From the NCBI GenBank assembly GCA_964612665.1, contig CAZTCI010000002.1, positions 83,659 to 147,658 of the forward strand: 64,000 nucleotides of DNA. The letters run 5' to 3'. Below, piece after piece: positions 1,877 to 26,972 of this stretch. The notes under the pieces are model-generated. The model did no database searches. It was not told the origin of the DNA and saw only the letters and a program-made list of their open reading frames with translations. Both the position numbers and the translations under genes were made by a program. The DNA is from an uncultured Planctomycetales bacterium. GTDB taxonomy: Bacteria > Omnitrophota > Gorgyraeia > Zapsychrales > JAHFFX01. Each line of letters starts with the position of its first letter. Position 1 is the stretch's first letter.

Positions 1877-2467
1877 GTGGTTAAAAAGAAACTCAACAAT
1901 ACGGATGTGGTAAAAATTGCTGAACAAAAGCGGCATTTATTTCTTTTGGAGAAAGTCCAACAAGGAAAACCGCTTAGTGAACGTGAGATTGTCGAGATTA
2001 GACATTTTGAGGCCGTGCATGAGCCGCATGAGGGATGTGTGAATAGCATTGAGAATCTTGCCAAAATTTTTAAAGTGGATCGACGTACCGCATATCGATG
2101 GAATGAAGAAGGCATGCCGTGGCAAAAAGACGGCTGGTGGAATATTGTAGAGGTTCAAAAATGGCGTGAAAGTCGCAATAAGAAAAAAGAGCAAGAACCA
2201 GAGGGTCAATTTGAAGCCAAGATTGCGGAGGTAAGGTATAACCTTTTAAAATTAAATTATGAAGAACGTATCGGGGATGTGATCTCACTGGCAAAAGTAA
2301 AAGAGGATATCGGCAGCGAAATTCTTATCATTAAGCAGCAATTTCTTTCTCTACCGCGTCAAATTGCTCCGCAGTTGTTCGGATTAGAAATCATCGAAAT
2401 AGAAGAACTTTTAGAAAAGAAACTCAAAGAAATTATATCAGGATTTGCCAAAGGGAAATATCGGTGA
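1877..2467 (+). CDS. terminase small subunit (putative, HTH DNA-binding)
   Basis: 196 aa, HTH-like segment (RRTAYRWNEEGMP), charged coiled-coil C-terminus, immediately upstream of and overlapping TerL start. Confidence 0.5.
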   Translation: MVKKKLNNTDVVKIAEQKRHLFLLEKVQQGKPLSEREIVEIRHFEAVHEPHEGCVNSIENLAKIFKVDRRTAYRWNEEGMPWQKDGWWNIVEVQKWRESRNKKKEQEPEGQFEAKIAEVRYNLLKLNYEERIGDVISLAKVKEDIGSEILIIKQQFLSLPRQIAPQLFGLEIIEIEELLEKKLKEIISGFAKGKYR

Positions 2468-4326
2468 GGCAAGTTGAAGAAAGCTTTTTTTGTGAATTAT
2501 TTAACCTATGGGATTTGCCGGCTGATCTTACCGTTTCACAATGGGCGGATCAGAATAGGGTTTTGGACCCGCGCTCGTCATCCGAACCCGGGCAGTGGTC
2601 GACCGCGCGTACGCCGTATCTTAAGGGCATCATGGATGGTTTTAATGATGCAAAGGTCAGGTCAATTACGATCATGGCGTCCACCCAGGTCGGCAAGACC
2701 GAAGCAATGCTTAATATTTTTGGTTACATTGTTGATCAGGATCCCGGTCCTGCGCTGTGGGTCAATACAACCGAGGAGTTAGCAAAAAGTTTTTGTAAAC
2801 ACCGGATTCATCCTCTGGTCACAATGTCACGGACCTTAGTTCAACATTTGACTGGCAAAGAGGATGATCTAGCGAAACTCGAAATCAGTTTTGACCGAAT
2901 GCCTTTGTTTATTGCCTGGTCGAATTCGCCGGCGGTACTTTCATCAAGACCGATTAAATATATATTCTTTGATGAGGTTGATAAGTATCCAAAATTCTCC
3001 GGTAAGGAAGCAGACCCTATAAAGCTGGGAGAAGAACGTACAAGCACATTTTGGAATCACAAAATAATCAAATGTTCAACGCCAACGACCAAAGAAGGAT
3101 ACATCTACAATGATTATCTTAAGACAGACAGATGCCAGTATTACGTTCCATGTCCGCATTGCGGGCACTACCAGGTTTTAAATTTTCATCAGGTGAAGTG
3201 GCCGAAAGACGAATTTACAACCCAGGAGTTAAAGGATAGGCGGCTGGCAACATATGAGTGTCTTAAATGCAAAGGAAAAATTAAGGACATTCATAAAAAC
3301 AGGATGTTACAGCGGGGCGTGTGGTGTCCAGAATCTTGCGAAGTCAAAGATGGCAAGATTGTTGGAGAGGTACCGGTAACAACGCGCCGCGGCTTCTGGA
3401 TCAATGCGCTTTATTCGCCATGGTTGACATTTTCTGATTTGGCAGCGGAGTTTTTGGAGTCAAAGGATCAAATTAATGATTTGATGAATTTTATCAATTC
3501 AAAGCTGGCCGAAATTTGGGAGGAGAGTTTAGGGACTAAGAAGCCGGATCAGCTTAAAAGATTGGCCAGTCATTGTGATGCCGGTGTTGTTCCTTCTGAA
3601 GCGCAGATTTTACTTGGAGCGGTAGACGTTCAGCGGGATCACTTTTATTTAACGATCAGGGCCTGGGGTTTTCGTCAAAAATCCTGGCAGATTTTATCAA
3701 AGCGGGTAGAAAGTTGGGAAGATGTTGAACATTATATGATCGACACAGAATATCCAAGCGAGATTGAAAGTATCGGGAATTTTAGTGTCAGACTTTTTAC
3801 GATTGATACGGGACACCGCGCAAGTGAGGTTTATGATTTTTGCCGTAGACATGGTGATATAGCCCGCGCTATTAAAGGGCGACGGGTCATTAGCGGGATT
3901 CCGTATAGTGTGAGCAATATTGATAAATATCCGGATGGCAGACCAATGCCAGGGGGTCTTAAGCTATATCTTCTGGATACGACATTTTTTAAAGATAAGA
4001 TTACGCGTTTGGTTGAGAATACGGCAGCCGAAACGCCTGGTGGATGGTATTTCCATAAAAACCCTACGGAAGACTATCTCAATCAGTTTTGCTCTGAACA
4101 CAAAATCATCATCAGAGATAAAAAAGGCCGGCCAACTGAGGCTTGGGTGCCGGTTGGGAGGCATACAGCAACTCATTATTGGGATTGTGAAGTATATGCC
4201 ATGGCGGCAGCTGAAATGCTGCACGTTTTTTCTATGCAGCCGGATGAAAGCCGTCATGTTTATCAGCCGGAAAGCGGCAAAAGCAACTGGATCCCTAAAA
4301 AGACTGGCTGGATAAAGCATGGGTAA
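2464..4326 (+). CDS. terminase large subunit, GpA family (lambda-like)
   Basis: 620 aa; Walker-A-like MASTQVGKTE near N-terminus, C-terminal nuclease region; position between TerS and head genes. Confidence 0.85.
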   Translation: MRQVEESFFCELFNLWDLPADLTVSQWADQNRVLDPRSSSEPGQWSTARTPYLKGIMDGFNDAKVRSITIMASTQVGKTEAMLNIFGYIVDQDPGPALWVNTTEELAKSFCKHRIHPLVTMSRTLVQHLTGKEDDLAKLEISFDRMPLFIAWSNSPAVLSSRPIKYIFFDEVDKYPKFSGKEADPIKLGEERTSTFWNHKIIKCSTPTTKEGYIYNDYLKTDRCQYYVPCPHCGHYQVLNFHQVKWPKDEFTTQELKDRRLATYECLKCKGKIKDIHKNRMLQRGVWCPESCEVKDGKIVGEVPVTTRRGFWINALYSPWLTFSDLAAEFLESKDQINDLMNFINSKLAEIWEESLGTKKPDQLKRLASHCDAGVVPSEAQILLGAVDVQRDHFYLTIRAWGFRQKSWQILSKRVESWEDVEHYMIDTEYPSEIESIGNFSVRLFTIDTGHRASEVYDFCRRHGDIARAIKGRRVISGIPYSVSNIDKYPDGRPMPGGLKLYLLDTTFFKDKITRLVENTAAETPGGWYFHKNPTEDYLNQFCSEHKIIIRDKKGRPTEAWVPVGRHTATHYWDCEVYAMAAAEMLHVFSMQPDESRHVYQPESGKSNWIPKKTGWIKHG

Positions 4327-4552
4327 TTGGATCCCAAAAAAGAAGGGTTGGATCGGAACTCCGGTATCTTCACCGGAAATAGAAGCCCAGCCACAGCCTC
4401 AAGAATATGGTGTTGTTTTTTATCCTGTGCGGTGTCCGAAAAGTAGTTGTAGAAGCAAAAATAACCGGTGTTACAAAAGCACACCACCGATTCGATACCA
4501 TATTTGCAATGATTGTGGGTACAGGTTTAAAAGCAGAGAGGCAGAGGATTAA
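4319..4552 (+). CDS. small zinc-ribbon protein (CPxxC...CxxC)
   Basis: 77 aa with two Cys pairs (CPKSSC, CNDC); 8-nt overlap with TerL stop; N-terminus NWIPKKKGWI duplicates TerL C-terminus NWIPKKTGWI. Confidence 0.45.
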   Translation: MGNWIPKKKGWIGTPVSSPEIEAQPQPQEYGVVFYPVRCPKSSCRSKNNRCYKSTPPIRYHICNDCGYRFKSREAED

Positions 4553-4670
4553 AACAAGTCGTTACCAATTTGTGGTAACGACCCCATTGACGGCAGAGAA
4601 TAAGTTCATAGAATAAAAATTGTTTAAAGATTTACGTTGATAGAAGGGTGGCCACCCCGATATCGACGAA

Positions 4671-4720
4671 AAAAGCGGCAATTTGGGTGCCCAAATCACT
4701 CGAATTGCCGCTTTTTTATT
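4671..4720. terminator. rho-independent terminator-like hairpin (A-tract, 9-bp stem, T-tract)
   Basis: aaaaaGCGGCAATT...AATTGCCGCttttttatt; inner palindrome atttgggtgcccaaat in the loop. Confidence 0.55.
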
Positions 4721-4733
4721 TAATGGAGGAGAA

Positions 4734-5213
4734 ATGAAAAACAAAATTATAGGTTTAATGATTTTTATTTTTATTTCGATGACTTGCCGCGCTATGGCTG
4801 ATTGTGTCGGAACTATTCAATCGATTACACAAGATCCGGATCAAGGAGACATAGTATTTACGACTGAATATGCCTTCAACGGAAAAGTCGTAGATGCATC
4901 GGAAATTCACTATGACGAAACAAGTGGTAACGAAACGGACATAGCAGAAAAAGCTCATGCAGATATAAGAAATCATTGCAATGTCTTGATTCTTCAAATT
5001 CCAGAAAATCAGGCATTCATTGAACAGGCTAAACTCGACCGTAAGAAAGAATTGACAAACCCTTTGGTGTCAAAACTTCAGGTTCTGGTTGGTGATCAAT
5101 ATACCGTGACTCAAGGAACAGTTGTTTTTCAGGGCAAGTCAATCAATGTTAAAGACGATAAGGAAAACTCGGTATCGGATGCCGTCATTGTCGAGGACAT
5201 TAATTCGCCATGA
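4734..5213 (+). CDS. secreted hypothetical protein (Sec signal peptide)
   Basis: Start at MKNKIIGLMIFIFISMTCRAMA with AXA cleavage site; RBS ggagga upstream; stop overlaps next gene start (ATGA). Confidence 0.5.
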   Translation: MKNKIIGLMIFIFISMTCRAMADCVGTIQSITQDPDQGDIVFTTEYAFNGKVVDASEIHYDETSGNETDIAEKAHADIRNHCNVLILQIPENQAFIEQAKLDRKKELTNPLVSKLQVLVGDQYTVTQGTVVFQGKSINVKDDKENSVSDAVIVEDINSP

Positions 5214-6004
5214 AGAAATTTATTTTAGGATTGATGTTTTCTTTTTTCTGTTCGTTAGGGTGGGCGACTAACTATTGCACAGATTCAAACACAAAAGCTG
5301 CCTATAAGCTTGATGAGACTAGTGGGACCGTTACGGACTGCAGCTCTAACGCCAATAATAGCTCCTCTGTCACTAACGTCACACAGAATACAACGGGAAA
5401 ATGGGGAGTAGGAGTTTCATTTACAAATTCAAATCCGCAAAAGATTTTAATTCCTTCAAGTACATCACTCAACAACATAAATCCGATTACCGTTTGTGCT
5501 TGGATAAAAAGAAGCGGCGCTGGTGGGGCAACAGGAAACCTGGCGGATGACGGCACCCTTCTTAGTAAAAACTGGAGAAGCTGGGCTTTATCTTTAAACA
5601 CGACTTTGCAGGTTAGATGGTCGGTTCATTATTCTGGCGGAACTGCAGCCTGGACAACCACAAATGGGAGCATTGTGACCGGAACGTATACGCACGTCTG
5701 CGTTGTCCACAATAGGACCAATGGCTCGGCACCTAGTATTTATGTCAATGGAACGTTACAAAGCACAAATTCAAACTCAACAGATGCAACCATTGATGAT
5801 GATTCTGGTCAAGCGATATGCATGGGAGAGGCTTGCGATTTAAACAGTGACCGGTTAAATGCTTTTGTGGATGAAGTATTAATTTATGGCGGGGCTTTAA
5901 ATTCTACACAAGTAACCAATATAAAAAATTGCGGAATTGATGGTTCTCATTGTGCCAATGGTTTCCCAACTCCAGATTTGTGGAGGCATCCAAGATATGA
6001 ATAA
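5210..6004 (+). CDS. secreted LamG/concanavalin-A-like lectin domain protein
   Basis: Signal peptide MKKFILGLMFSFFCSLGWA; C-terminal motif FVDEVLIYGGALNSTQV typical of Laminin_G_3 domains. Confidence 0.55.
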   Translation: MKKFILGLMFSFFCSLGWATNYCTDSNTKAAYKLDETSGTVTDCSSNANNSSSVTNVTQNTTGKWGVGVSFTNSNPQKILIPSSTSLNNINPITVCAWIKRSGAGGATGNLADDGTLLSKNWRSWALSLNTTLQVRWSVHYSGGTAAWTTTNGSIVTGTYTHVCVVHNRTNGSAPSIYVNGTLQSTNSNSTDATIDDDSGQAICMGEACDLNSDRLNAFVDEVLIYGGALNSTQVTNIKNCGIDGSHCANGFPTPDLWRHPRYE

Positions 6005-8888
6005 AAAATTTCTGTCATTAATTATTTCTTTGGTGATTCTTTTGCTCCCAGCGCAATCTTGGGCGATGTGGTTGACGATCAAGAAGGGGACGACATCAAA
6101 GATTATCACGATTCCCATATATGACAGTTCTTCAACGACTGGCGGCATGTTAACCGGCTTAGTTTACAATTCGAGTAGTTTGACAGCTTATTACAATCGC
6201 GAAGGAGCTTCTGGTGCCGCAACTTCAATAAGTCTAGTTAATGCCACAAAGGGGACATGGACTTCTGGAGGATTTATCGCGGTTGATGGTACCAATATGC
6301 CAGGCTGGTATGAGTTGCACATACCTGATGCGGCTCTTGCGACAGGTGCAAATTCAGCCGTTGTTGAATTAAAGGGCGCTGCAAACATGGTTCCTGTAAA
6401 TATTATGATCCAACTGGTTGATTTTAATCCTGGTGAAGTCTCAACAGGGACTGGATCTAATCAGTTGGATGTTACCAGTGGACGTATTAAGGCAGATGTT
6501 GCATATTGGAACGCTTCTGCCGTAGCCACACCCGATACCGCCGGATATCCCAAGGTCACCCTTAAAGCTGGTAGTGGAACGGGTGAATTAAATCTATCCA
6601 GTGGGAACGTCACTGTAGGTACCAATAATGATAAATCCGGCTATTCATTATCGGGCACTTTAACCACTTTAGATTCCACCTTTGAGAGAGTTAACACAGC
6701 ACAAGCGGGAGCAGCTGGTTCAATTACTTTAGACGCCGGCGCTTCAGCAACCGATAGTCTTTATAACGGTAATTGGGTATGCATCATGAGCAGCACCGGT
6801 GCTGGGCAATGCCGTTTGATCACTGGTTACACAGGATCGACTAAGGTTGCAACGGTCACACCAAACTGGACGACCAATCCATCTTCAAGTTCAGTTTTTG
6901 CCATTGTTCCAGCAGCTTATGAAGCTGGAAATAATGGGAATGTGGCAGGATCAGTTAATAGCGTTACCTCTGGAGTGACTGTTTCGATCAATAACGATAA
7001 GACCGGCTACAGTCTTACTCAATCTTTCCCCACGAATTTTTCCAGTTTAGGTATCGATGGCAGCGGCAGAGTTGATTTGGGCAAATGGATAGGAAATGCA
7101 CCGAATGCGCTTATTTCCGGCCGTGTCGATTCAAATGCCCAGGTAGTTGGAGATAAAACTGGATACAGTTTGACGCAATCGTTTCCTACCAATTTTTCAT
7201 CCCTTTCAATTGATTCAAGCGGAAGAACCACACTGACACCAATAGAGTCATCCGTCTTGGCTAGTGGGACGGCGCAAGCTGGTGCTTCGGGAAGCATAAC
7301 TTTAGCTGCCGGAGCATCTGCTACGGATGATCTTTATAAGGGTTTGGTCGTAAAAATTTATGGAGGCACAGGAGCAGGCCAATCCAGAACGATTTCGGGA
7401 TATATCGGTTCGACCAAGGTCGCAACAGTATCTTGGAATTGGACAGCCACACCAGATAACACTTCGACATACTCGCTTATGTCTGAATCCAATCCATCAA
7501 TCAATAGCAGCTTACAGGTTTCAACAACGGCGAGTGATCCGTGGGGAACAGCTTTGCCAGGGGCATATGGAGCCGGAACAGCGGGGAATATTTTAGGAAA
7601 CAATTTGAATGCTACCGTTTCATCGAGATTAGCCACAAGCGGCGTGCCTACAAACTTCAGTGCATTATCAATTGATGGATCCGGCCGCGTGGATTTAGCT
7701 AAGTGGATTGGTTCTGCCCCGAATGCGTTGATTTCAGGACGGGTTGATTCTAACGCTCAGGTGGTAGGTGATAAAACGGGATATACCGCAGCAACGGTTC
7801 AGGATAAGACTGGCTATTCATTATCTGGAACACTCACCACTTTAGATTCCACCTTTGAGAGGGTTAACACGGCCCAGGCCGGTGCAGTCGGTTCGATTAC
7901 TTTAGACGCGGAGGCTTCAACGACCGATAACCTTTATAACGGAAACTGGGTCTGCATTATGAGCAGCACTGGTGCCGGGCAATGCCGTTTGATCACCGGC
8001 TATACAGGATCGACTAAGGTTGCAACGGTCACGCCAAACTGGACAACCAACCCATCTTCAAGTTCAGTTTTTGCCATTGTTCCAGCAGCTTATATTTCTG
8101 CAGTCAATGGATCCGTCACGGTGGGAACGAACAATGACAAGACCGGCTACAGTTTAACCCAAGCATTTCCGACCAATTTTAGTTCCATGGTAATTGACAG
8201 TAATGGTCGCATCGATTTGAGCAAGTGGCTTGGAAGTGCACCTAACGCGCTTATCTCTGGCCGCGTGGATGCCAATGCACAAGTGGTTGGAGACAAAACA
8301 GGATATACCGCATCAACCGTCAGCGATAAAACCGGTTATAGCTTGACGCAGGCGTTTCCAACTAATTTCAGTTCATTATCAATAGATGCGTCAGGTCGTA
8401 CTGATATCGGTAAATGGTTGGGAACAGCAGTTACAGCAACGACAACAGCCGGAAAACCGGACGTTGTTATTGTGACCAATAATGACAAGACAGGATACAC
8501 CGTTTCAACTGTTGGAGATAAGTCTGGGTATTCTTTAAGTTCTGCCGGTGTCGCTGCTATCTGGAATGAATTGCAAAGCGGCCACACCACATCTGGGACT
8601 TTCGGTAAATATCTTGATGCGCAGATTTCAACGATTACGGCACCTTCCGCGGCGACTATTGCACAATCGGTTTGGGATGAACCTATTTCTGGTCATTTAG
8701 CTTCCGGCTCAACTGGTCAGAAACTTAATACCGCAGGTAATGCTGGGGATCCCTGGGCTATTGATATTTCCAGCGGATACAGCGGTAAAGCTGGAGAAAC
8801 TATCCGCCGTATTGATCAAGATACGAATGGAAACAAAGATGGCAGCGATTATAACGGCATTGAAAAACTAATCAGGGCGCAGAGGTAA
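5998..8888 (+). CDS. large secreted Thr/Ser/Gly/Asn-rich beta-repeat protein (fibre/adhesin-like)
   Basis: Start MNKKFLSLIISLVILLLPAQSWA (signal peptide) overlapping upstream stop; repeated modules NNDKTGYSLTQ(S/A)FPTNFSS..ID.SGR..L.KW.G.APNALISGRVD.NAQVVGDKTGY; C-terminal VW(N/D)E..SGH..G(S/T).G motifs reminiscent of phage fibre proteins. Confidence 0.6.
6639..6920 (+). repeat. 282-bp direct repeat copy 1 inside the large repeat-protein gene
   Basis: Near-identical to 7812..8093 at DNA level (differences scattered, mostly synonymous); encodes GYSLSGTLTTLDSTFERVNTAQAGA..GSITLDA.AS.TD.LYNGNWVCIMSSTGAGQCRLITGYTGSTKVATVTPNWTTNPSSSSVFAIVPAAY. Confidence 0.8.
7812..8093 (+). repeat. 282-bp direct repeat copy 2 inside the large repeat-protein gene
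   Basis: See copy 1; the same 94-aa segment is duplicated 1173 bp downstream. Confidence 0.8.
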
Positions 8889-8890
8889 GT

Positions 8891-9436
8891 ATGGATTACA
8901 TTCCAGTTAATACCGAATTCGTTGATGTCGTAGCCATCCCTGAGTCCACAAGTAGCGATACTGTCAGTTTTAAGGTCTATAAAGCTAGTGACGGATCCAT
9001 ATTTGCTCAGGGCAATGCCGTATTTGTGGGAGGAGTAAATTGGAAAGTAACCTTTACTCCTACGACTTTGAATGAAGTTTACAGCATTGATGTCAAAGAT
9101 GAAACTTTGGATGTCATTCATTCCAATAGTTTCAAGGCAGTAACGCTCACATCATTATCGCAGCCGGTTAATGATGACAACACTGATGAACCTACAGCTG
9201 CAGACTTACTGACCGAAGTCAATAAGGCGATTAAGAAAAGAATTGCCGGTGATGCCGTGCAGTCATATTCAATCGGCGGACGTAATCTTCAATATATGTC
9301 CATTGATCAGCTTTACAACATTCGAGAGAAATTGCGCATGGAAGTCAATGCTTCAAAAGGGCCTGCCCGTAATGTAGGCGGATTTAGAAAAAATCAAACC
9401 GGAGTTAGAAACTGGCAGGATTTATATGAGTGTTAA
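8891..9436 (+). CDS. head-tail joining protein with gpW-like C-terminal domain and an N-terminal beta-rich extension
   Basis: C-terminal ~70 aa (AADLLTEVNKAIKKRIAGDAVQSYSIGGRNLQYMSIDQLYNIREKLRMEV) resembles lambda gpW; located between TerL region and portal as W is in lambda. Confidence 0.4.
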   Translation: MDYIPVNTEFVDVVAIPESTSSDTVSFKVYKASDGSIFAQGNAVFVGGVNWKVTFTPTTLNEVYSIDVKDETLDVIHSNSFKAVTLTSLSQPVNDDNTDEPTAADLLTEVNKAIKKRIAGDAVQSYSIGGRNLQYMSIDQLYNIREKLRMEVNASKGPARNVGGFRKNQTGVRNWQDLYEC

Positions 9437-11042
9437 AAAAGAGAAACAAGGATTACTTGAGAAATTTAATAGCGGTGTAGATCGCGCCATTGGCATTTTT
9501 TCTCCTAAGAGGGAGCTTGAACGCCGGATGTGCCGAATGGCTAATACGTTTGCTATGCGGGGAAGTTATGAGGGCGCCAGGCGTGATCCGGCCAGGGCCG
9601 ATTGGTTACCGCGTGGCGGATCTGCGGATGAGGACATTCTTGATGATCTTCCCATGTTACGTCAGCGTAGTCGGGATTTAGACCGTAATGATGCGATCGC
9701 GTCTGGAATAAGTTCGACCATGGTTTACAACGTTATTGGACACGGCATGTGCCCGCAGAGCCAAATAGATAAAGACAGGATAGGCCTGGATGATGCGTCA
9801 GCAACAAAATTTCAAAGTGACATAGAAAAAGTCTGGGAGCGCTGGACCCCGTTTGCTGACACGGGTGGTCGCATGAGTTTTTGGGAAATGCAGCAGGTGA
9901 TTATTCGGCAAATCATCATGAACGGGGAAGTTATCTTTTTAAGGGAGTCAATAACTGATGAGCCGTGGAGGCCGTATAACCTGGCTTTTAACATGGTTGA
10001 GGCAGACCGTCTTGATACGCCATCGGATAAATTAGCGGATAAATCCATCAGAAGAGGTGTTGAATTAGGAGATCGCGGGCAGCCGGTAGCTTATTGGATA
10101 TGCAACACGCACCCGGGGGATTTTACTTATTCTAAACGTGCCCCTGATTCTAAACATTACGTCCGTTTTCCCATCAGAAGCCCCTACGGGCAGCTTAATG
10201 CTATGCATCTTTATTGGATGAAACGCCCAGGGCAGACGCGTGGAGAGCCATTCTTGGCACCTGTTTTAAATAAATTTAAAGATTTGGCGGATTATATGGA
10301 AGCGGAATTGATTGCTAATAAAATTGCTGCCTGTTTCGCGCTTTTTATCAGACAAAACAATCCGTATGACTCGGCTTTAAAAGCAACCACGAGAACAGAG
10401 AACAGCAAAAGGATTGAAGAACTATATCCAGGCCTTATTGAGAGGTTGGGTCCTGGTGAGGAGGTACAAACAGTTAATCCGACCAGGCCTGGTGCTCAAT
10501 TCGACCCCTTTGTAGACAAAATTTTGTGTTTTATAGGTGCGAGTATTGGATTGCCCCGAGAGCTTATCTTAAAAGATTTCGGTAAATCTAATTATTCAAA
10601 TACTAGAGCCGCAATCTTAGAAGCCAGAAAAATGTTTAAGTCCAAACAATTATGGCTATCTGAAAAATTCTGTCAGCCGGTATTTAACTTGCTGGTGGAA
10701 GAAGCATTTTTGCGTGGGGAGATTAAAGCGCCTAATTTTTATCAATTTCAACAGGATTATAGTCGTTCCAAATGGATCGGTCCTGGATGGGGATATATTG
10801 ACCCCGAGAAAGAAATCAACGCGGCAACAGAGGCAGTTGCCAATAATCTATCGACGCTGGCAGATGAGTGCGCCGCGCATGGTAGGGATTGGGAAGATGT
10901 TCTTATTCAACGTCAGCGCGAAGAGAATATGAAAAAAGATTTAGGAATCCCCGATGCCAATGCGCCTAACACAACGATTACCATTGGTCGCAATGGCAAG
11001 CCGTCTAACCAAGGAGATCCCAATGCACAAGAAAGTCAATGA
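9426..11042 (+). CDS. portal protein, lambda gpB family
   Basis: N-terminal region (DWLPRGGSADEDILDDLPMLRQRSRDLDRNDAIASG) matches the lambda-family portal signature; 538 aa. Confidence 0.85.
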   Translation: MSVKKEKQGLLEKFNSGVDRAIGIFSPKRELERRMCRMANTFAMRGSYEGARRDPARADWLPRGGSADEDILDDLPMLRQRSRDLDRNDAIASGISSTMVYNVIGHGMCPQSQIDKDRIGLDDASATKFQSDIEKVWERWTPFADTGGRMSFWEMQQVIIRQIIMNGEVIFLRESITDEPWRPYNLAFNMVEADRLDTPSDKLADKSIRRGVELGDRGQPVAYWICNTHPGDFTYSKRAPDSKHYVRFPIRSPYGQLNAMHLYWMKRPGQTRGEPFLAPVLNKFKDLADYMEAELIANKIAACFALFIRQNNPYDSALKATTRTENSKRIEELYPGLIERLGPGEEVQTVNPTRPGAQFDPFVDKILCFIGASIGLPRELILKDFGKSNYSNTRAAILEARKMFKSKQLWLSEKFCQPVFNLLVEEAFLRGEIKAPNFYQFQQDYSRSKWIGPGWGYIDPEKEINAATEAVANNLSTLADECAAHGRDWEDVLIQRQREENMKKDLGIPDANAPNTTITIGRNGKPSNQGDPNAQESQ

Positions 11043-12447
11043 GCTGGTTTTTTTAAGGCCATGGGCAATGAAGCAAGATACGTTGATAGCGATGACTGAA
11101 ATTGTCGAACGCCATCTTAATGGAGTCAAACTTTCTCAAGATGAAATTGCAGCAAAGATTGGAGCTGATAAGAACGAACCGCCGGCTTATGAAGTGATTA
11201 ACGGTGTAGCCAATATTCCAATTTTTGGAGTGATCGCAAAGCGTGCTGGCATGGTCGGAAGTATTTCGCAGCCGCGCGGGACATCAGTTGAGCAGATTCA
11301 AAATGATTTTCTTGCAGCTTTGGAGGATCCAAAGGTTAATAGCATTTTGCTTAATATTGACAGCCCTGGGGGAAGTGTTGCCGGCATTCTGGAATTATCA
11401 GATTTAATTTATCAAGCACGTGGGCAGAAGCCGGTTGTGGCTTTTGCTAATGGTCAGATGGATTCGGCAGCTTATTGGTTAGGTTCGTCAGCGGAGAAAA
11501 TATTTACCACAAAGAGTTCAGAGGTTGGTTCCATCGGTGTTTATACCGTGATCAGTGATTATTCAATTCTTTATCATAACGAAGGGATAAAGAAACAAGT
11601 TATTAAAGCCGGTAAATTCAAGGCAGCCGGCGATCCGTCAAAACCATTAACAGAGGAGGAAAAAAATTTAATTCAGGAAGAAGTTAATTCTTATTACGAC
11701 CTTTTTGTTGAGGCTATTGCGCGTAATCGCGGTTTGGCCATGGATAACGTTTTAAAGGTCGCTGATGGCCGTGTTTTTATTGGCCAGAAGGCCGTTGATG
11801 CGGGACTGGCAGATGGTATCCGTACATTTGAGGATCTCTTAGGGCGCGGATCATCAGCTGCAGGTGGAAGAGGGACAAAGACCAAAGTAATCGCTAGTTC
11901 AGATGGCGTTCAGATAGAGACACAAGGGAATTTAGATAAAAATCACAAACAGGAGGAAGAAAAAATGCAATTAACAATCGAGAAAGTCAAAGCAGAGCAT
12001 GCAGCGGTTGCGGATGCTCTTTTACAGGAAGGTAAAGCAGCCGGCATTGAAGAAGGAAAAGTTATAGGGATCGAAGAAGGTAAGAAGATCGGTATTGAAG
12101 AGGCCAAAAAAGCTGCAGCTGCGGAAGCTGTCGCTGCCGAGAAAGTACGTTGTTCGGCGATTCTTGAATCCATGCCTCCAGGTGCCAGAAGTATTGCTGC
12201 TACCGCGATCAAGGAAGGATTAAGTGTGGAGGCTTCCAAAGCCAAATTTTTGGATGCCATCAATGCAGGCACCATCAAATCAATCGGTGATGGTGGAGGG
12301 GAAGAAGCTTTAAATGCTGCAGAAGCTGCCGCTGGCAGCGACCCAACCGGCAAGAAGCATCTGGAACGCGCAGAGAAATATGCCAAGGAAAACAATTGCG
12401 ATGTCGTCACAGCTTTAAAGGCAACCGCAAAACCAAATAAGCAATAA
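11023..12447 (+). CDS. prohead protease (S49/SppA family, gpC-like) with C-terminal Ala/Glu-rich scaffold-like domain
   Basis: NIDSPGGSVAG...GQMDSAAYWLGSSAEKIF S49 peptidase motifs; C-terminal EEGK repeats and AAAAEA scaffold-like coiled coil; start MHKK overlaps portal end. Confidence 0.8.
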   Translation: MHKKVNELVFLRPWAMKQDTLIAMTEIVERHLNGVKLSQDEIAAKIGADKNEPPAYEVINGVANIPIFGVIAKRAGMVGSISQPRGTSVEQIQNDFLAALEDPKVNSILLNIDSPGGSVAGILELSDLIYQARGQKPVVAFANGQMDSAAYWLGSSAEKIFTTKSSEVGSIGVYTVISDYSILYHNEGIKKQVIKAGKFKAAGDPSKPLTEEEKNLIQEEVNSYYDLFVEAIARNRGLAMDNVLKVADGRVFIGQKAVDAGLADGIRTFEDLLGRGSSAAGGRGTKTKVIASSDGVQIETQGNLDKNHKQEEEKMQLTIEKVKAEHAAVADALLQEGKAAGIEEGKVIGIEEGKKIGIEEAKKAAAAEAVAAEKVRCSAILESMPPGARSIAATAIKEGLSVEASKAKFLDAINAGTIKSIGDGGGEEALNAAEAAAGSDPTGKKHLERAEKYAKENNCDVVTALKATAKPNKQ

Positions 12448-12495: not shown

Positions 12496-13221
12496 ATGTC
12501 TCAAGAAAATCATGGAGTTAAAACGCTTCTCACAAGTGCCGATTTATTAGTGTATCGCCGTTTAAAACTCGACGGCTCGCAAAATTATGTTTATGCCAAT
12601 GCGGGTGAAGAGTTTGTTGCTGTTTCAACCGATAACACCTTAAATGGTCAGCCCCAAGGTGGTGCTCTTCGCACATCTGCCAGGACTTTTAAGATGACTG
12701 CATCGGGTGTCATTGCTGCAGGTGCCACCATTTACGGCGATATTAACGGAAAAATTAGCACAACCGTTTCCGGTAATCCTATTGGTATCGCTCTTGAAGC
12801 TGCAACGGCAGACGGCGATATCATCGAATGTTTTTTAAATAATGGTGCTGCTGGGACCCTCGATGGGGCTAGTACCGGTATCGTTGCCGATGGCGGCAAT
12901 GGTGCGTTTCCGGTGATTTTTGCCAAGCAGGGGATCACCGATGCGTCTGGTGCAGGTGTGACCATTGTGACCGCACCTTATAAATTCAGGATTATCAATT
13001 GGTGGGTTGTTGCACGCGACACAACGGCTGCCAACGTGAAGTTAAATAATAACGGAACTGACGCAACCGCAAATATCGCCAAAGGTACTGTTAATGACAC
13101 CATTGTGCCAGGCGGTACGATTGTCGCGGCTCAAAAAGATGTTCTGGCTGCAAGTCCATTAAAAGCCATTGCGTCTGTTGCTGGGGCTTTCGATGTATTT
13201 GTCATGGTTATCAAGGTCTAA
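12496..13221 (+). CDS. head decoration protein-like (gpD/DUF2190-like), two-domain
   Basis: Gly/Ala/Thr-rich beta protein located between protease and major capsid; strong RBS aggagg upstream. Confidence 0.4.
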   Translation: MSQENHGVKTLLTSADLLVYRRLKLDGSQNYVYANAGEEFVAVSTDNTLNGQPQGGALRTSARTFKMTASGVIAAGATIYGDINGKISTTVSGNPIGIALEAATADGDIIECFLNNGAAGTLDGASTGIVADGGNGAFPVIFAKQGITDASGAGVTIVTAPYKFRIINWWVVARDTTAANVKLNNNGTDATANIAKGTVNDTIVPGGTIVAAQKDVLAASPLKAIASVAGAFDVFVMVIKV

Positions 13222-13267
13222 TTTAAAACGGAATTAAACCAAAGATTCTTAAACAGGAGGTATTTCA

Positions 13268-14227
13268 ATGATTCTTCAAGTCGGACAACGCGCCACACCG
13301 CGCCTGGATTTAGGTGCTGCATTCATGCAGTATATGCAAAATAACAACGATTTTATTGGGCTTAATGTTTTCCCCATCTTTGGTTCTCAATTGATGGCGG
13401 CTTATTTCCCAGCCATTACCCGCGAAAGTATTTTACGTCGGGCGACGACCAAAAGGGCCCCGGGCGGTAAGTATAACCGGGATGGTTTTGAAACGGTGGA
13501 TATCCCCTTTAGCTGCGTTGAAAACGGCTTGGAAGGGGTTGTGGATGATGCAAAAAGGAATTTGTATCAGAGTTCCTTTGACGCGGAATTGGTTCACACC
13601 CAAATCTTAGGACGCCGTCTTTTGATCGAACAAGAAGTAAGAATTAAAACTTCGGTTATTAATACCACGGTCTTCACAGGCACACCCTTTTATAAGGACA
13701 ATTCTGCAAATCCTTGGACGACTGTGGGAACGGATGTACGCAGTCAGGTTACTTTTGCCAGAGAGAAAGTTCGCTCTAACTGCGGCATGTCGCCAAATGC
13801 TCTGATCATCACACAGAACAATTTGGATGCATTAAAGGTTAATTCTCAAATCACCGATGCCATCAAATACACCGCGCGATTGACCGATGCTGAAATCGTC
13901 AATGCCTTGGCAGATTTCTTTGGCATTCAAAAAGTGTTGATCGCCAAAGCAGTATACAACGGTGCCAAAGAAGGCCAAACATTCGCAGGTTCCTATATCT
14001 GGGATGACAACTATGTCTTCTTAGGTGTTGTTTCCAGCGATACAAGCGGCTCATTAACGGATCCCGCTATCGGACGCACGATTCTTTGGGAGCAAGATTG
14101 TCCTGATAACGTGCATGCCGAAAGTTACCGCGAAGAATCTTCCCGCGGTGATGTCATCCGTGTACGTCAATTCACCCAAGAGTTAATGATCGATAAGTAT
14201 TTCGGTTTCTTAATGAAGGTTCGCTAA
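13268..14227 (+). CDS. major capsid protein (lambda gpE-like family)
   Basis: 319 aa in the lambda E position, RBS aggagg, followed by a strong terminator. Confidence 0.65.
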   Translation: MILQVGQRATPRLDLGAAFMQYMQNNNDFIGLNVFPIFGSQLMAAYFPAITRESILRRATTKRAPGGKYNRDGFETVDIPFSCVENGLEGVVDDAKRNLYQSSFDAELVHTQILGRRLLIEQEVRIKTSVINTTVFTGTPFYKDNSANPWTTVGTDVRSQVTFAREKVRSNCGMSPNALIITQNNLDALKVNSQITDAIKYTARLTDAEIVNALADFFGIQKVLIAKAVYNGAKEGQTFAGSYIWDDNYVFLGVVSSDTSGSLTDPAIGRTILWEQDCPDNVHAESYREESSRGDVIRVRQFTQELMIDKYFGFLMKVR

Positions 14228-20220: not shown

Positions 20221-20639
20221 TGGACCTTTTGACACAGGAAAAAACAATTGTCCGTAAATATTTGGACGTTAAATACAAACTTCGCGGACGAGCAGTGGAT
20301 AGCGGACTTGATTGCTATGGATTGATCGTAGCCATTTACAAAGACATGGGTTTTGAGCTTTTGGACATTGAAGAGGAGTACAACGAGGACTGGGCATGGG
20401 AAGGCCGGAACCATTTTATTGAGAATTATCACAATCAGTGGATCAAGGTAGAGTGGCCGAGATTTCTAGATGTGGTTTTGTTTAAGAATTCAAAAGGTAT
20501 TGCCAATCATGGCGGAATCGTGCTTCGGGATGACAGATTTCTACATTGCAGCAAAACCAATGTGACGGTCGGCCGGCTGGCTCAAGAGCCATGGGATAAA
20601 CGAATTGATGGGTTTTATCACTTAAAGGCACGCGGATGA
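20220..20639 (+). CDS. tail protein K-like NlpC/P60 peptidase
   Basis: DCYGLI (Cys nucleophile) and HGGIV (His) NlpC/P60 motifs. Confidence 0.6.
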   Translation: MDLLTQEKTIVRKYLDVKYKLRGRAVDSGLDCYGLIVAIYKDMGFELLDIEEEYNEDWAWEGRNHFIENYHNQWIKVEWPRFLDVVLFKNSKGIANHGGIVLRDDRFLHCSKTNVTVGRLAQEPWDKRIDGFYHLKARG

Positions 20640-23600
20640 TCAAAGTCACGCACATACCAAATATTCTTAATAATGAGAATCGCCGCGAGGTGGGGTTTGT
20701 TTATGACCGCGACAAAACTGTCCTTCAATATCTACAGGAATCCGGATTTGAACATGAAGGAATGCGGATTATTGTATCGGGCAAGAAAATTTCTGATTTA
20801 AGCGCGCGGTTAGATAAAGGTGATCAAATTCTTATTTTGCCTGATGTCAAAGGGCCTCTGATTCCTTTGATAGCAGCGGCATTTCAATTGTTAGTTGCCG
20901 CAATTGTAGCCCATCCATTCATTGCTGCCTTCGCATTTCTTTCAATCGGTTACAGTATTTATTCTTACGCCAGCACCAGCCGCAAGCCAGCATTTAATCT
21001 TAGCGGAGGTTCGGGCATTGACAGCGCATCGCCTACGTATTCTTGGGACGGGATTCAAACGACACAGTCAGTCGGTACACCAATTCCGATCATATTTGGA
21101 ACTCACAGAGCTGGCGGCAATATCATCAATCAGTTTATTAATACCGATGGTAATGACAATTATTTAAATATTCTATTGGCTCTTTGTGAAGGAGAAATTG
21201 AAGGCATTTCTAATATTGAAATCAACGGAAACCCTATTGAGAATTTTCAGAATATTACAACAGACCTTCGTTATGGTACGAACAATGAAACCATTGTTAG
21301 CAATTTTCATGATTTGCACAATATTTATGCGGTCAATGCGCAGCTGCAGCAAAGCAGTTCATATGTTTACACCACAATTAACAATGATGTGCAGGCCTTT
21401 GAGATTCATTTATCGCTGTCAAACGGACTTTATTATCAAAATTCCAGTGATGGGTCTATTAATCCGTGGGAGGTTGATTACCGTATCGAATACAAACTCA
21501 CAAGTAGCGGCACATGGATTGATCTAGGTGTTCAAGCCATTAATGATCAAAGTCGAACCAGTGTACAACGTATCTTTCGTAAAGATGGGCTGACAGCCGG
21601 TAAATATGATATTCGGGTTACGCGTACATCAGCTAATAGCGATTTTTATCACACCGGTGACTTATTCTTTCTAAGTGTTGATGAAATAAAAACAGAAGAT
21701 ATTGCCTATAACAATACTGCAAAAATAGGGATTAAGGCACTTGCCACCAATCAATTATCTGGAAGCACGCCTAATGTTACTTGCCTGGTTAAAGGTTTAA
21801 AAATTTTGGTTCCCAAAGTCATGCAGGGAGCCGTCGAGATTGCTTGGGATAACTATTATTGGGATCCGAATGCACAAATTTATAAGCTGCTTTCTGATAA
21901 TTCATCTCTCACATGGGATGGTACCACGTATGTTCGCCGGTATTCTGCCAATCCAGCTTGGTGCTTATATGAGTTGTTGACCAATTCGCGTTTCGGACTT
22001 GGGGAGGTTATCGCAACATCACAGATGAAAATATCTGATTTTGTTGAAATGTCTAAATATTGTGAGGAGAAAGTCAGTAATGGTAGCGGAGGTTATGAGA
22101 AACGATTCAGGATGGATGTTGTCATTGATAGTGCCAGTTCATCATTGGACATTATTTCACAGTTGGCTGCAGTCTTTAATGCGCTGCCATTTTACTCCCA
22201 AGGTTTGATTAAATTAAAAATCGATAAGCCGGATAGCCCAGTGCAGTTGTTTGGTATGGGCAACATCGTTGAGAATACCTTCCAACAGTCATGCAAATCT
22301 TACAAAGACATTTATAACGTTATTGAAGTTCAGTATCTGAATCAGGACATGGATTACGCGCAAGATACGATTTCCTTTATTGATGGAGTGGCTTTAGCCG
22401 CGGGGGATCCTGTCAGAAAGAAATCTATTCGGATTTTTACGACCAAAACGTCATATGCAGTACGGGCCGGCCGGTATGCGCTTTTGGTTGCCAAGTACAT
22501 CAATCGTTCCATTGCTTTTAATGCCGGTATTGATGCGATTGCTCTACAAGCTGGAGATTTGTTTGATTTTTCTCATGATGTGCCGGCATGGGGTTTGTCT
22601 GGAAGAATAATCTCGGGTACTACGACATCAGTTACGCTTGATCAATCGGTCACGCTTCAATCAAGTTTAAGTTATGTGGTGAGGGTCAAGTTTTCAGATG
22701 ACACTATTCAAGAAAGAACAGTGTCCAATGCTGTAGGCACATACACTGTTTTAAATGTGTCTTCTGCTTTTAGCCAGGCACCGCAGGCATTTGATGTTTA
22801 TGCCTTTGGCCAGACCAATAAGGTCGTTAAAACATTTCGAGCAGTCACGCTGCAGCGGATGAACAATTTTGAGGTAGCTCTGCATGGGATTGAATATAAC
22901 GAAGGTGTTTACGATGATTCTGCGGTGGTCCTTCCAGTCAATATCGTGTCTTCTTTGGATCCAACAATTCCTGAAGTCACTAATTTAGTGTTGAGTGAAA
23001 ATGCGGTTAATTTGAATGATGGCACGATTCAAGATGTTATTGATGTTTATTGGCAGGCTCCGGTTATTACCAATTCATTGCGCAGATATGCAAAGGCCAG
23101 GGTGTATATCTCTGCCGATAATGCTGCTAGTTGGCTTTTAGCCGGAGAGACGAGCGGCACCAGTTTCTCAATTCAAAGCGGGATCGCCGTAGGTAATCAA
23201 TACAAAATAGCAGTTGTATCAGTCACTGATCACAACGAAGAAAATGGCATTTTAATAAGCCCGCAGGCCACTATCACCACAATCGGCAAGAATTCACCTC
23301 CCAGCGATGTGACGAATTTCGCAGTAGATCAAAATAACAGTTTTCTTGATTTCTCATGGGATCCCATTCAAGACAGGGACCTAGCGCGCTACATCATTAA
23401 AAAGGGTAGCACCTGGGAGACCGGACAGGTCGTGGCTGAAAAAATAGATGTAACAAAGTTTACAGGTGAGGTGGGGGAAATCGGTCAGGTAACGTTCATG
23501 ATTAAGGCTGTGGATACCTCTGGTAATGAAAGCAATAATCCTGGCATTTATGACATCACCGTAGCACCACCACCAGATTTAAATTTCGTCGTGAATTTTG

Positions 23601-24301
23601 ACCCATGGGCAGCCAATCGTGAATACAAGTTAACTAATATTGCCCGGGAAGAAATGAATATTTTTAATCCAGTCTATGCGCGGGATGTCTTTTCATTAAT
23701 GACTTCACAAACTTGGGCAGATGAGCAAGCAACAGGAAAAGGTTGGGACGAAGCGGTTGCTGCTGGTGATTTGAATTTTAATAAGACTTTTCAGACATCC
23801 GGATCAATTGAACAGGTGGACCCGTGGGATCTGGGATTCTTGTTTGAATTTCATATCATCTTGGACATGTTATTTAACAACGTGGCCGGCGGCACATTGA
23901 CGATTCAAATTGCCATCAGTGAGGACAATGTCACTTGGGGCAACTTTGCCAATGTGGATGGATCAATTAATTATCGTGCCCGGTATATGAAGTTTAAATA
24001 TTTGCTTACATCCGATGGAACAAACAATCTTTATTTTTATGCTGGAACGATTTTTGTCAATGCGCCAAATGTGAGGGTGGCATGGTGGAGGGATGTCGCA
24101 GTTCCAATTGGCGGGGTGACCATTAATTTTGGAACGCCTTTTAACACGACACCTCGTATTACAGCATTAATTGTAAAGAATGCCGTGGGTGTGCCAGAGG
24201 TAGTATCGATTGATTTATCTACGATCACAGTCAAGGTTAAGGATTTAACAAATTCATATATTGGCACCTCAAAGGTTGATGGAGAGGTGAGGGGAAATTA
24301 A
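20636..24301 (+). CDS. tail tip/host-specificity protein (gpI-like N-terminus fused to gpJ-like central fibre)
   Basis: 1221 aa, position after K; N-terminal ~200 aa with hydrophobic segment as in gpI; FN3-like repeats downstream. Confidence 0.7.
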   Translation: MIKVTHIPNILNNENRREVGFVYDRDKTVLQYLQESGFEHEGMRIIVSGKKISDLSARLDKGDQILILPDVKGPLIPLIAAAFQLLVAAIVAHPFIAAFAFLSIGYSIYSYASTSRKPAFNLSGGSGIDSASPTYSWDGIQTTQSVGTPIPIIFGTHRAGGNIINQFINTDGNDNYLNILLALCEGEIEGISNIEINGNPIENFQNITTDLRYGTNNETIVSNFHDLHNIYAVNAQLQQSSSYVYTTINNDVQAFEIHLSLSNGLYYQNSSDGSINPWEVDYRIEYKLTSSGTWIDLGVQAINDQSRTSVQRIFRKDGLTAGKYDIRVTRTSANSDFYHTGDLFFLSVDEIKTEDIAYNNTAKIGIKALATNQLSGSTPNVTCLVKGLKILVPKVMQGAVEIAWDNYYWDPNAQIYKLLSDNSSLTWDGTTYVRRYSANPAWCLYELLTNSRFGLGEVIATSQMKISDFVEMSKYCEEKVSNGSGGYEKRFRMDVVIDSASSSLDIISQLAAVFNALPFYSQGLIKLKIDKPDSPVQLFGMGNIVENTFQQSCKSYKDIYNVIEVQYLNQDMDYAQDTISFIDGVALAAGDPVRKKSIRIFTTKTSYAVRAGRYALLVAKYINRSIAFNAGIDAIALQAGDLFDFSHDVPAWGLSGRIISGTTTSVTLDQSVTLQSSLSYVVRVKFSDDTIQERTVSNAVGTYTVLNVSSAFSQAPQAFDVYAFGQTNKVVKTFRAVTLQRMNNFEVALHGIEYNEGVYDDSAVVLPVNIVSSLDPTIPEVTNLVLSENAVNLNDGTIQDVIDVYWQAPVITNSLRRYAKARVYISADNAASWLLAGETSGTSFSIQSGIAVGNQYKIAVVSVTDHNEENGILISPQATITTIGKNSPPSDVTNFAVDQNNSFLDFSWDPIQDRDLARYIIKKGSTWETGQVVAEKIDVTKFTGEVGEIGQVTFMIKAVDTSGNESNNPGIYDITVAPPPDLNFVVNFDPWAANREYKLTNIAREEMNIFNPVYARDVFSLMTSQTWADEQATGKGWDEAVAAGDLNFNKTFQTSGSIEQVDPWDLGFLFEFHIILDMLFNNVAGGTLTIQIAISEDNVTWGNFANVDGSINYRARYMKFKYLLTSDGTNNLYFYAGTIFVNAPNVRVAWWRDVAVPIGGVTINFGTPFNTTPRITALIVKNAVGVPEVVSIDLSTITVKVKDLTNSYIGTSKVDGEVRGN

Positions 24302-24696
24302 TGGCACTCAAAGGATATTGTCCCAACTGCAAAATATTGGTCGATATGGTGGGGATTCAAACAATAAGGCTTGCCAATAAACAGTATGTGCAGAGCGGTG
24401 CTTGTGCAATCGATGGAAGCTCGGTTGTAAAAGCAATCGCTGATACAGAAATGTTAATTGTTCCGCCTGGGTATTATTTCCCAAAGACGGTGTATGCCGG
24501 TAAAGATACGCCGAGCAAAATAATCAATGATCACAACGGTCAGCAAATAATAACGGCCAAGGGTGTTGTGATATCAACCACAGCTAAGGATAAAAACATA
24601 AAAACGTTAGCTCAAATCGAGGAGGGGTTAAATGAAGATCAAAAGAATATTCGCGTTGATGTTAAGCGCGATGCTGTTGTTGCAGACATGGGTTAA
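24301..24696 (+). CDS. hypothetical phage protein
   Basis: 131 aa, ATGA overlap with the J stop. Confidence 0.3.
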   Translation: MALKGYCPNCKILVDMVGIQTIRLANKQYVQSGACAIDGSSVVKAIADTEMLIVPPGYYFPKTVYAGKDTPSKIINDHNGQQIITAKGVVISTTAKDKNIKTLAQIEEGLNEDQKNIRVDVKRDAVVADMG

Positions 24697-26308: not shown

Positions 26309-26647
26309 ATGGAAGATTCAAAAAATAAAAATGAAATTCCTTGGGATGGCGTAGACAGACGACAACCCGAAGCATTAAAAGTCTCGACCTGGGTGATTCC
26401 TATTGTCATCAGTCTTTTAATCACATCTGGTAGTTATTTGACTGCCTTTGGTGGATTCAAAGAAAACGTGGTCAATTTAGATAAAAGGATCAATGCTCTT
26501 GAATCAGATAATGAAAAGCACAAAGAAAGAATCGTGATTTTAGATACGATTGTGCCTCTTCTTCAGCACGACATATCGGATATCAAGTCAGATATCAAAG
26601 AGGTCAAAGAAGACATTAAGAGAGTTTTAATAGCGGTCAAACAATAA
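26309..26647 (+). CDS. single-TM coiled-coil membrane protein (holin or spanin-like)
   Basis: TM segment WVIPIVISLLITSGSYLTAF then heptad-rich coiled coil. Confidence 0.3.
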   Translation: MEDSKNKNEIPWDGVDRRQPEALKVSTWVIPIVISLLITSGSYLTAFGGFKENVVNLDKRINALESDNEKHKERIVILDTIVPLLQHDISDIKSDIKEVKEDIKRVLIAVKQ

Positions 26648-26668
26648 ACAACAAACAGGAGGTTATTT

Positions 26669-26971: not shown

Positions 26972-26972
26972 A

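Follow-up and report, generated by a model that had tools for sequence, protein, structure and literature searches.

The element described here is a cassette of genes for signal-peptide proteins in the head module of a lambda-like prophage, located in a window of 64,000 nucleotides (nt) from contig CAZTCI010000002.1 (assembly GCA_964612665.1, positions 83,659 to 147,658); all coordinates below are those of this window unless another locus is named. The real unit comprises 4734-8888 together with the first ~85 codons of the adjoining gene W (8891-9145), which encode an N-terminal immunoglobulin-like (Ig-like) domain. It is accessory, being absent from otherwise syntenic relatives. Our reading, held tentatively and at slightly less than an even chance, is that it specifies a dispensable, horizontally exchanged neck fibre of the collar or whisker kind, which would bear exchangeable lectin or enzyme tips, mature in the periplasm and be joined to the virion at lysis. 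An earlier note on this DNA had set the cassette at 4319-8888, limits that did not hold, and had preferred moron cargo to an exported head-fibre system; the latter fits better, with attachment at the neck rather than at the head shell.

The cassette and its junction with W comprise the following features:

4734-5213, + strand: sp160, a protein of 159 aa
5210-6004, + strand: LamG/ConA-like lectin of 264 aa (PF13385, E=1.3e-21)
5997-8888, + strand: big963, a fibre-like repeat protein of 963 aa
5997-6065: signal peptide of big963
6066-6425: N-terminal Ig-like domain of big963
8814-8885: conserved C-terminal tail of big963, ..DGSDYNGIEKLIRAQR
8891-9436, + strand: W181, the head-tail adaptor
8891-9145, + strand: N-terminal Ig-like domain of W181 (residues 1-85), belonging to the cassette
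9146-9436, + strand: disordered linker (residues ~86-100) and gpW-like joining domain (residues ~101-167) of W181, part of the backbone gene

The three genes sp160, LamG and big963 are co-oriented on the + strand between TerL and the zinc-ribbon gene Znr on one side and W and the portal gene on the other. They overlap by 4 nt (sp160/LamG) and 8 nt (LamG/big963), a 2-nt spacer separates big963 from W, and W overlaps the portal gene by 11 nt; on account of these overlaps and the short spacer, the series sp160-LamG-big963-W-portal is considered translationally coupled. The earlier note's description of co-oriented, coupled genes with Sec signal peptides (AMA-D, GWA-T and SWA-M) was therefore confirmed, as were the LamG/ConA-like domain that it assigned to the second protein and the ~960-aa Thr/Ser/Gly/Asn-rich repeat protein, here big963 with its internal repeats. 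Consensus scans detected no terminator-like or strong promoter-like site between big963 and W. Base composition was native, gene GC (0.38-0.46) and third-position GC (GC3, 0.38-0.50) lying in the range of neighbouring phage genes, and a foreign composition of the cassette was rejected on these values.

Protein sp160 has a signal peptide at residues 1-22 and two Cys in its mature part; it had no Pfam, PHROG or PDB match and is possibly a periplasmic assembly factor. The LamG protein combines a signal peptide (residues 1-19), the LamG domain (residues 77-235) and 10 Cys. Its C-terminal tail, FPTPDLWRHPRYE (5960-6001), recurs in locus L046, in the partner of a fibre with the same N-terminal type, and a PDB sequence search with the lectin returned nothing. 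Mature big963 contains 13% Ser, 13% Thr, 12% Gly, 10% Ala and 7% Asn, Ser+Thr+Gly+Ala making up 48%, and its repeat region displays the DK[ST]GY motif ten times and, in addition, three AQAG..GSITL beads, each about 70 aa long. A 300-nt duplication (6630-6929 versus 7803-8102) is 86% identical. The possibility of a diversity-generating retroelement target was rejected, as every type of substitution distinguishes the two copies, third codon positions and synonymous sites being affected most, with no specificity for adenine. Segments of the fibre had no significant PHROG or Pfam match, and the PDB sequence search was also empty.

Analysis of the site in related phages supported its accessory character. 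Cassette-less relatives, whose TerL is 48-57% identical, display the order TerL-Znr-leader-W-portal with ~200 nt from Znr to W, and a W of 70-126 aa in those examined. The earlier note had suggested comparing relatives for loss of the cassette and direct abutment of TerL on W: the cassette is indeed absent from many, and Znr and a leader intervene between TerL and W. Other relatives carry unrelated inserts at the Znr/W junction, which is thus an accessory hotspot. These were a DUF4065-like (toxin-antitoxin-like) pair 5' of the leader in L011, methyltransferases in L013, an outer-membrane beta-barrel protein in L175, a reverse-strand 587-aa protein in L168 and small regulators in L172, L189 and L193.

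Fibre cassettes were found at the same site in L046/L047, L048/L049, L053, the P0024 locus, L140, L141, L144, L217 and L223. Uniform carriage of these genes by related phages, as conserved virion components, had been named in the earlier note as speaking against cargo; they are carried at this site by a subset of related phages, not by all. Their order was constant: a small signal-peptide protein, at least one larger signal-peptide protein, a signal-peptide fibre and a W of ~166 aa. The first slot is occupied by sp160 homologues in L053, L140 and L217 and by unrelated small signal-peptide proteins in L046 and L223. Likewise, the LamG slot holds LamG proteins in L053, L217 and the P0024 locus, a protein judged beta-helix-like from its sequence in L046 and other signal-peptide proteins in L048, L144 and L223. 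The cassette of L144 (1404-6995 of that locus) is a 5.8-kb variant in which three signal-peptide proteins are large (583, 473 and 443 aa), and its 326-aa fibre is a 'short' form reduced to an N-terminal domain, a few repeats and a type A C-terminal tail; the fibres of L219 and L220 are short ones of the same type.

Presence of the fibre was closely associated with presence of the Ig-like domain of W. A W-profile search of a metagenome sample yielded 80 loci. The W genes of 10 of them carried the N-terminal domain, and all nine with readable upstream DNA lay directly behind a fibre-family gene, while none of the ~60 plain W genes had such a gene upstream (Fisher p about 2e-11, relatedness being ignored). 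The cassette-bearing lineages occupy at least three separate positions of the TerL tree, and L009, the nearest TerL neighbour of the window, has no cassette; the block is therefore transferred or lost as a whole. A contig scan based on a narrower alignment of the N-domain found six loci. Additionally, in L219 and L220, the two loci with other backbones and other adaptors whose context could be read, the gene of an N-domain adaptor is directly preceded by that of a signal-peptide fibre ending in the same C-terminal tail. No N-domain was found near 76 fibre genes without signal peptides from IMG/VR, and the pairing is therefore specific to the signal-peptide type. The Mu-like phage L054 (6587-12966 of that locus) carries three signal-peptide proteins between its Amidase_2 endolysin gene and its Mu gp27/terminase genes, namely a LamG-like protein of 232 aa, one of 737 aa and an 821-aa fibre of the big963 family; lambda-like phages are therefore not the only ones to possess the module in its exported form.

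Identification of W181 as a gpW head-tail joining protein is based on its domain content and on its position directly 5' of the PF05136 portal gene. Residues about 100-167 matched phrog_5774 (E=7e-11) and phrog_118, both gpW/head-tail joining, and the AlphaFold2 model displays a low-confidence linker followed by a helix-strand-strand-helix arrangement; the Pfam gpW model gave no match to W181. The N-domain is modelled as a small Ig/E-set-like sandwich on a flexible linker, for which fold searches gave generic Ig-like matches. Its homology with the N-terminal domain of big963 was rejected, no BLASTP alignment being obtained. A word-indexed search with the W N-domain returned only two proteins, and an exhaustive profile search gave 81 clusters. 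In these the domain is fused N-terminally to gpW, gp6-like Phage_connect_1 (11 of 56), SU10_adaptor, a head completion protein, DUF4054 or Mu Gp36. This fusion to several head-tail adaptor families places the N-domain at the virion neck, where, on the basis of these comparisons, it is proposed as the docking site of the fibre. The domain is duplicated or free-standing in some cases. L048 has a free copy of 99 aa (12967-13266 of that locus) before the W fusion, a similar situation was seen in L138, and N-domain copies also occur in P0131, P0133 and P0130; some proteins carry two tandem copies before a gpW or gp6-like adaptor.

The two junctions of the presumed chain co-vary. The type of fibre C-terminal tail matched the adaptor N-domain subtype in eight of eight loci, across three fibre N-terminal types. 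Type A tails (last ~22 residues, D.T[DN]G.K[ED]G..Y[TN]GIE..IR..R) accompany N-domain subtype A in six loci and type B tails (..SQAGFYLQDLIKKSRGR) accompany subtype B in two. At the other end, the C-terminal tail of the gene 5' of the fibre tracks the fibre N-terminal type: partner tail FPxPDLWxHxRYE is paired with fibres of the MWLTxKKG type, and YSGRGxGRxIxRGxxR with those of the LEIVRQKN type. Co-variation at both junctions is what a colinear docking chain would predict.

The cassette proteins are predicted to be exported by the Sec pathway through type I signal peptides (hyphens mark the predicted cleavage). The peptides are MKNKIIGLMIFIFISMTCRAMA-D in sp160 (AMA-D), MKKFILGLMFSFFCSLGWA-T in the LamG protein (GWA-T) and MNKKFLSLIISLVILLLPAQSWA-M in big963 (SWA-M). 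According to the sequences and a crude scan, all three proteins have a charged n-region, an h-region of 10-16 residues and small residues at -3/-1, and these signal peptides are kept in orthologues from at least seven diverged loci. The same scan pointed to signal-peptide-like N-termini in five of 29 prophage open reading frames, namely sp160, the LamG protein (judged by eye, just under threshold), big963, a 552-aa fibre-like protein and a 73-aa lipoprotein. The fourth of these (tf552, 24632-26290, after the gpJ-like fibre) has a classical Sec signal peptide, ..LLQTWVKA-DETM, and a C-terminal 8-Cys knot (TTCGTTGTCNNCDAYVPSGCY...YYCCP); it had no strong Pfam match. Going by its predicted signal peptide, the prophage also encodes an exported fibre-like protein outside the cassette. 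The 10-Cys lectin and the 8-Cys knot of tf552 may offer a plausible reason for folding in the periplasm. Inspection of the C-terminal sequence of big963 by eye noticed no signal for outer-membrane secretion or anchoring.

The fibre belongs to a large family: big963 has more than 1,594 homologues, none of them informatively named. The N-terminal domain of big963 is modelled as an Ig-like sandwich with a predicted confidence (pLDDT) of about 97, and its fold matches, all weak, were to phage 80alpha 'Fiber Upper', a phage 'Tail protein' and a BppU N-terminal-domain protein. In sequence it is 70-76% identical to proteins without signal peptides from phage contigs. The family was seen in 329 IMG/VR stretches, and in the best 80 of these 329 the protein had no signal peptide and started exactly at the N-domain. 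Signal peptides were present on ~35 of the 120 closest full-length homologues, over several N-terminal domain types. The start of the fibre gene adjoins an upstream gene in 65 of 76 loci. Among the Pfam families encoded up to 5 kb from members without signal peptides, portals (~22), capsid proteins (~14) and terminases (~11) predominated, and no tail family occurred among the 25 commonest within that distance of the fibre genes. From this context the family looks like a structural appendage of the phage head or neck region, of which the signal-peptide form would be a derived minority. We found no description of the module in the literature, and the fibre, sp160 and the adaptor domain all lack a curated family.

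The region 5' of the cassette contains Znr and a leader, with these features:

4319-4552, + strand: zinc-ribbon protein (Znr) of 77 aa, with weak zinc-ribbon Pfam matches
4558-4733, + strand: regulatory leader of the head operon, between Znr and sp160
4558-4582: dyad
4587-4614, + strand: promoter-like site TTGACG-16-TAGAAT
4646-4657: GC palindrome or small GC hairpin
4670-4722: terminator-like hairpin with T-run
4725-4731: ribosome-binding site GGAGGAG for sp160

Znr had been counted by the earlier note as a member of the cassette. Its 5' end overlaps the TerL stop by 8 nt, a 181-nt gap separates it from sp160, and tblastn placed it directly after TerL in almost all relatives, with or without cassette; it is a conserved backbone gene of the phage group and lies outside the cassette. 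Its motif, ..CPKSSC..RYHICNDCGYRFKS, is reminiscent of Ogr/Delta-type zinc-finger late activators, a family not called by Pfam, and Znr may be a late-gene regulator acting on the adjacent leader.

According to consensus scans, the leader contains the best promoter-like site on the + strand and the strongest terminator-like site within 16 kb. The hairpin terminator and ribosome-binding site reported earlier before the cassette are thus present; they do not mark its boundary, the same elements preceding W in cassette-less relatives. The same architecture was found directly 5' of W in cassette-less L009 (12055-12233) and L014 (3185-3342), and 5' of the cassette in L046 (8290-8472), L048 (8618-8792) and L053 (about 8560-8700), each in the coordinates of its own locus. 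The leader therefore also serves W and portal where the cassette is lacking, and the cassette sits downstream of it. The hairpin has an invariant GGTGCC core and compensatory changes at three stem pairs across relatives; Rfam gave no family above threshold for the leader, only sub-threshold chance matches. Judging from this conservation, it is a conserved late leader and not a moron or cargo boundary. It looks like a late promoter followed by a leader terminator, which would imply antitermination or activator control; to our knowledge the logic of lambda PR'-tR' is similar.

These data can be assembled into the following model of a neck fibre. From the late promoter and leader (4558-4733), and at late times only, one transcript would cover sp160, the lectin, the fibre, W, portal and the head genes. 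The first three products would be exported to the periplasm and their signal peptides cleaved, with disulfides forming in the Cys-rich lectin; export would keep these proteins out of the cytoplasm. Meanwhile W, with its ~85-aa Ig-like domain on a flexible linker, would be built into the connector in the cytoplasm, the domain being displayed around the neck. Once the holin permeabilises the inner membrane, or at lysis, virions and periplasmic contents would mix. The conserved C-terminal tail of the fibre could then dock on the Ig-like domain of W, and the lectin (in relatives a beta-helix or other enzyme-like protein) could dock through its own C-terminal tail on the N-terminal Ig-like domain of the fibre. 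Reversible adsorption would thereby be assisted by neck fibres whose glycan-binding tips can be exchanged. The broader proposition, that some tailed phages of Omnitrophota and of other hosts build a virion part outside the cytoplasm, through Sec export, periplasmic folding and a docking chain spanning two compartments, is put forward as a possibility that we consider less likely than not.

Several points weigh against a neck fibre. Classical Sec signal peptides are found on all three soluble parts, whereas the virions of tailed phages assemble in the cytoplasm, and, as far as a brief literature search showed, no tailed phage is known to use exported virion parts. After export, big963 is presumed to be located in the periplasm. 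Co-variation could be mere linkage, the segments concerned being neighbours on the DNA, and the N-domain could be an independent neck decoration that travels with the cassette.

The most serious alternative, which we consider doubtful though far from negligible, is a late exported function outside the virion, acting on the envelope, on debris or on neighbouring cells, with the Ig-like domain of W as a separate neck decoration in the same mobile block. Possible roles would be receptor masking or superinfection exclusion, protection of progeny from debris, and loosening of surface glycans for release. Such a function would agree with signal peptides on every soluble component and on tf552, with a slot 5' of the fibre that holds LamG (by Pfam), beta-helix-like or large signal-peptide proteins (L144, L219), with the position of the L054 signal-peptide cassette directly after an endolysin gene and with the patchy, accessory distribution. 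The lack of an outer-membrane targeting signal in the fibre, as judged by eye, would likewise fit periplasmic storage until lysis. However, it accounts neither for the fusion of the Ig-like domain to the adaptor of all cassette phages and to several unrelated adaptor families, nor for the match between fibre C-terminal tail and N-domain subtype. A fibre of up to ~1,000 aa would also be costly for masking, the exclusion proteins T5 Llp, Cor and Ltp being small.

Another explanation, the one preferred in the earlier note, is classical moron or lysogenic-conversion cargo, which would provide the Omnitrophota host with surface adhesins and a lectin for attachment to prey or partners. The accessory insertion, the signal peptides and the lectin on which that preference was founded all stand; autonomy of the cargo does not, given the shared leader, the coupling and the co-inheritance. 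Insertion into a hotspot that receives unrelated accessory genes, including the outer-membrane beta-barrel protein of L175, the strong sigma-70-like site upstream (consensus scan) and the secreted lectin and fibre products would all be expected of a moron. Omnitrophota are also described as largely host-dependent or predatory (PMC10066038), which would suit such cargo. However, the promoter-like site and terminator are common to cassette-less relatives, where they lie 5' of W, there is no terminator or promoter break of its own before W and portal, translational coupling is tight, composition is not foreign, the cassette is co-inherited with an adaptor domain and inspection by eye revealed no signal for export to the outer membrane or anchoring there. 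Because the leader is shared with W and portal, own boundaries are missing, composition is native and co-variation involves a virion protein, a classical moron is improbable. Least probable is a bypass of the signal peptides by internal starts, which would yield ordinary cytoplasmic virion fibres: big963 does have an in-frame ATG at its cleavage site, and MWLTIKKG resembles the MKLxxKKG start of homologues without signal peptides, but a strong GGAGG lies 9 nt before the ATG at 5997 with no comparable site before 6066, Met is lacking at the cleavage site of most homologues with signal peptides (for example ..AFA-LEIVRQKN), and canonical n-h-c regions with AXA-type sites are kept in all three proteins across deeply diverged lineages.

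A neck fibre of this kind can be compared with several known systems. The closest is the neck passage structure (NPS), or collar and whiskers, of lactococcal phages (TP901-1, 936 group), likewise a non-essential, patchily distributed accessory structure at the head-tail connector. It is present in 73 of 113 phages of the 936 group; its collar is non-essential, its fibres end in carbohydrate-binding or pectin/alginate-lyase-like modules, it is expressed with the head genes and its N-terminus is a BppU-like beta-sandwich (PMC6669499). The cassette resembles it in having an accessory fibre gene adjoining W and portal, an Ig-like N-domain with a weak BppU_N fold match and lectin or beta-helix-like partners. 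In contrast, the NPS consists of a single cytoplasmic polypeptide that makes a collar ring of its own, whereas here separate genes encode the parts and each soluble part bears a Sec signal peptide. Anchorage is proposed to occur through an Ig-like domain carried by the gpW adaptor, and the phage resides in a diderm Omnitrophota bacterium; no sequence similarity was found, the fibre having no PHROG or Pfam match. The cassette thus appears to work like the NPS and is not filed as a member, since its predicted signal peptides would rule out cytoplasmic assembly.

Lambda-type morons (lom and bor, cor in phi80/N15, T5 llp) are also signal-peptide accessory genes lying between conserved late genes and absent from close relatives. 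Classical morons bring a promoter and a terminator with them and are expressed in lysogens, whereas the cassette stands behind a shared late leader, is translationally linked to W and portal and varies together with an adaptor domain of the virion. PblA and PblB of Streptococcus mitis phage SM1 are fibre-like structural proteins that act as bacterial adhesins after phage-mediated lysis, and thus set a precedent for phage fibres that serve the host side once released. Unlike the cassette proteins they have no signal peptides, reach the surface only via lysis and show neither an adaptor-domain link nor a sequence relation. Finally, phages append Ig-like, weakly glycan-binding domains to tail and capsid proteins, as in T4 Hoc. 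The N-domain of W is similar to these add-ons, being a small sandwich that is joined through a flexible linker to a core structural protein; it differs in being adaptor-specific and in having a signal-peptide fibre gene directly upstream wherever the context is readable.

The remainder of the prophage, of the lambda-like siphophage type, occupies the left 27 kb of the window:

529-1869: fusion of ParB-N and N6/N4 DNA methyltransferase, directly 5' of TerS
1877-2467: TerS
2464-4326: TerL, gpA-type (PF05876 and PF20454)
9426-11042: portal, lambda-family (PF05136)
10954-12447: S49 protease
between S49 protease and major capsid protein: a 241-aa protein
13268-14227: major capsid protein
3' of the major capsid protein: tail tube, tape measure and gpM/L/K/I-like proteins
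20636-24301: gpJ-like central fibre
24632-26290, + strand: the 552-aa fibre-like protein tf552 (phrog_33904 'tail fiber protein', E=6.8e-8)
26309-27327: small membrane/holin-like proteins

With a gpA-type TerL, gpW, a lambda-family portal and host genes from ~27.7 kb, the prophage head module recognised in the earlier note was borne out. The ParB-N/methyltransferase fusion (529-1869) is kept across the whole phage group with 52-55% identity. Candidate lysis genes (26309-27327) encode a DUF7365 membrane/coiled-coil protein, a Holin_LLH-like protein (PF09682), an 85-aa membrane protein and a 73-aa spanin-like lipoprotein; no endolysin was recognised from gpJ to the prophage end. No tRNA was found in the window, and a near-identity search of GenBank phages with the region gave nothing.

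The right prophage boundary lies near 27.3-27.7 kb. The host flank (27700-64000) contains genes for porin-like and ZnuA/B-like proteins, KdpD/E/A/B/C, FabF/FabG, IPMDH, Asd and TruA, as well as a C5 methylase and a HATPase_c_3 protein. FabF is 76-78% identical to proteins whose source names are Candidatus Omnitrophica or Omnitrophota only, and the same prophage architecture was found in an Omnitrophota metagenome-assembled genome (L053). Because of the host flank genes, the FabF identity and this prophage of same architecture, prophage status holds and the host is an Omnitrophota bacterium.

Omnitrophota are an uncultured, ultra-small and possibly predatory phylum. If the exported proteins are indeed incorporated into the virion, morphogenesis of tailed phages would not be strictly cytoplasmic, and a fibre tail of ~22 aa with an 85-aa Ig-like adaptor domain would constitute the docking pair. 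A terminator-like hairpin at loci of this kind should be read as a conserved late leader and not as a cargo boundary. Even if the exported proteins act outside the virion, they represent a widespread, unannotated module linking glycan-binding proteins to the phages of Omnitrophota.

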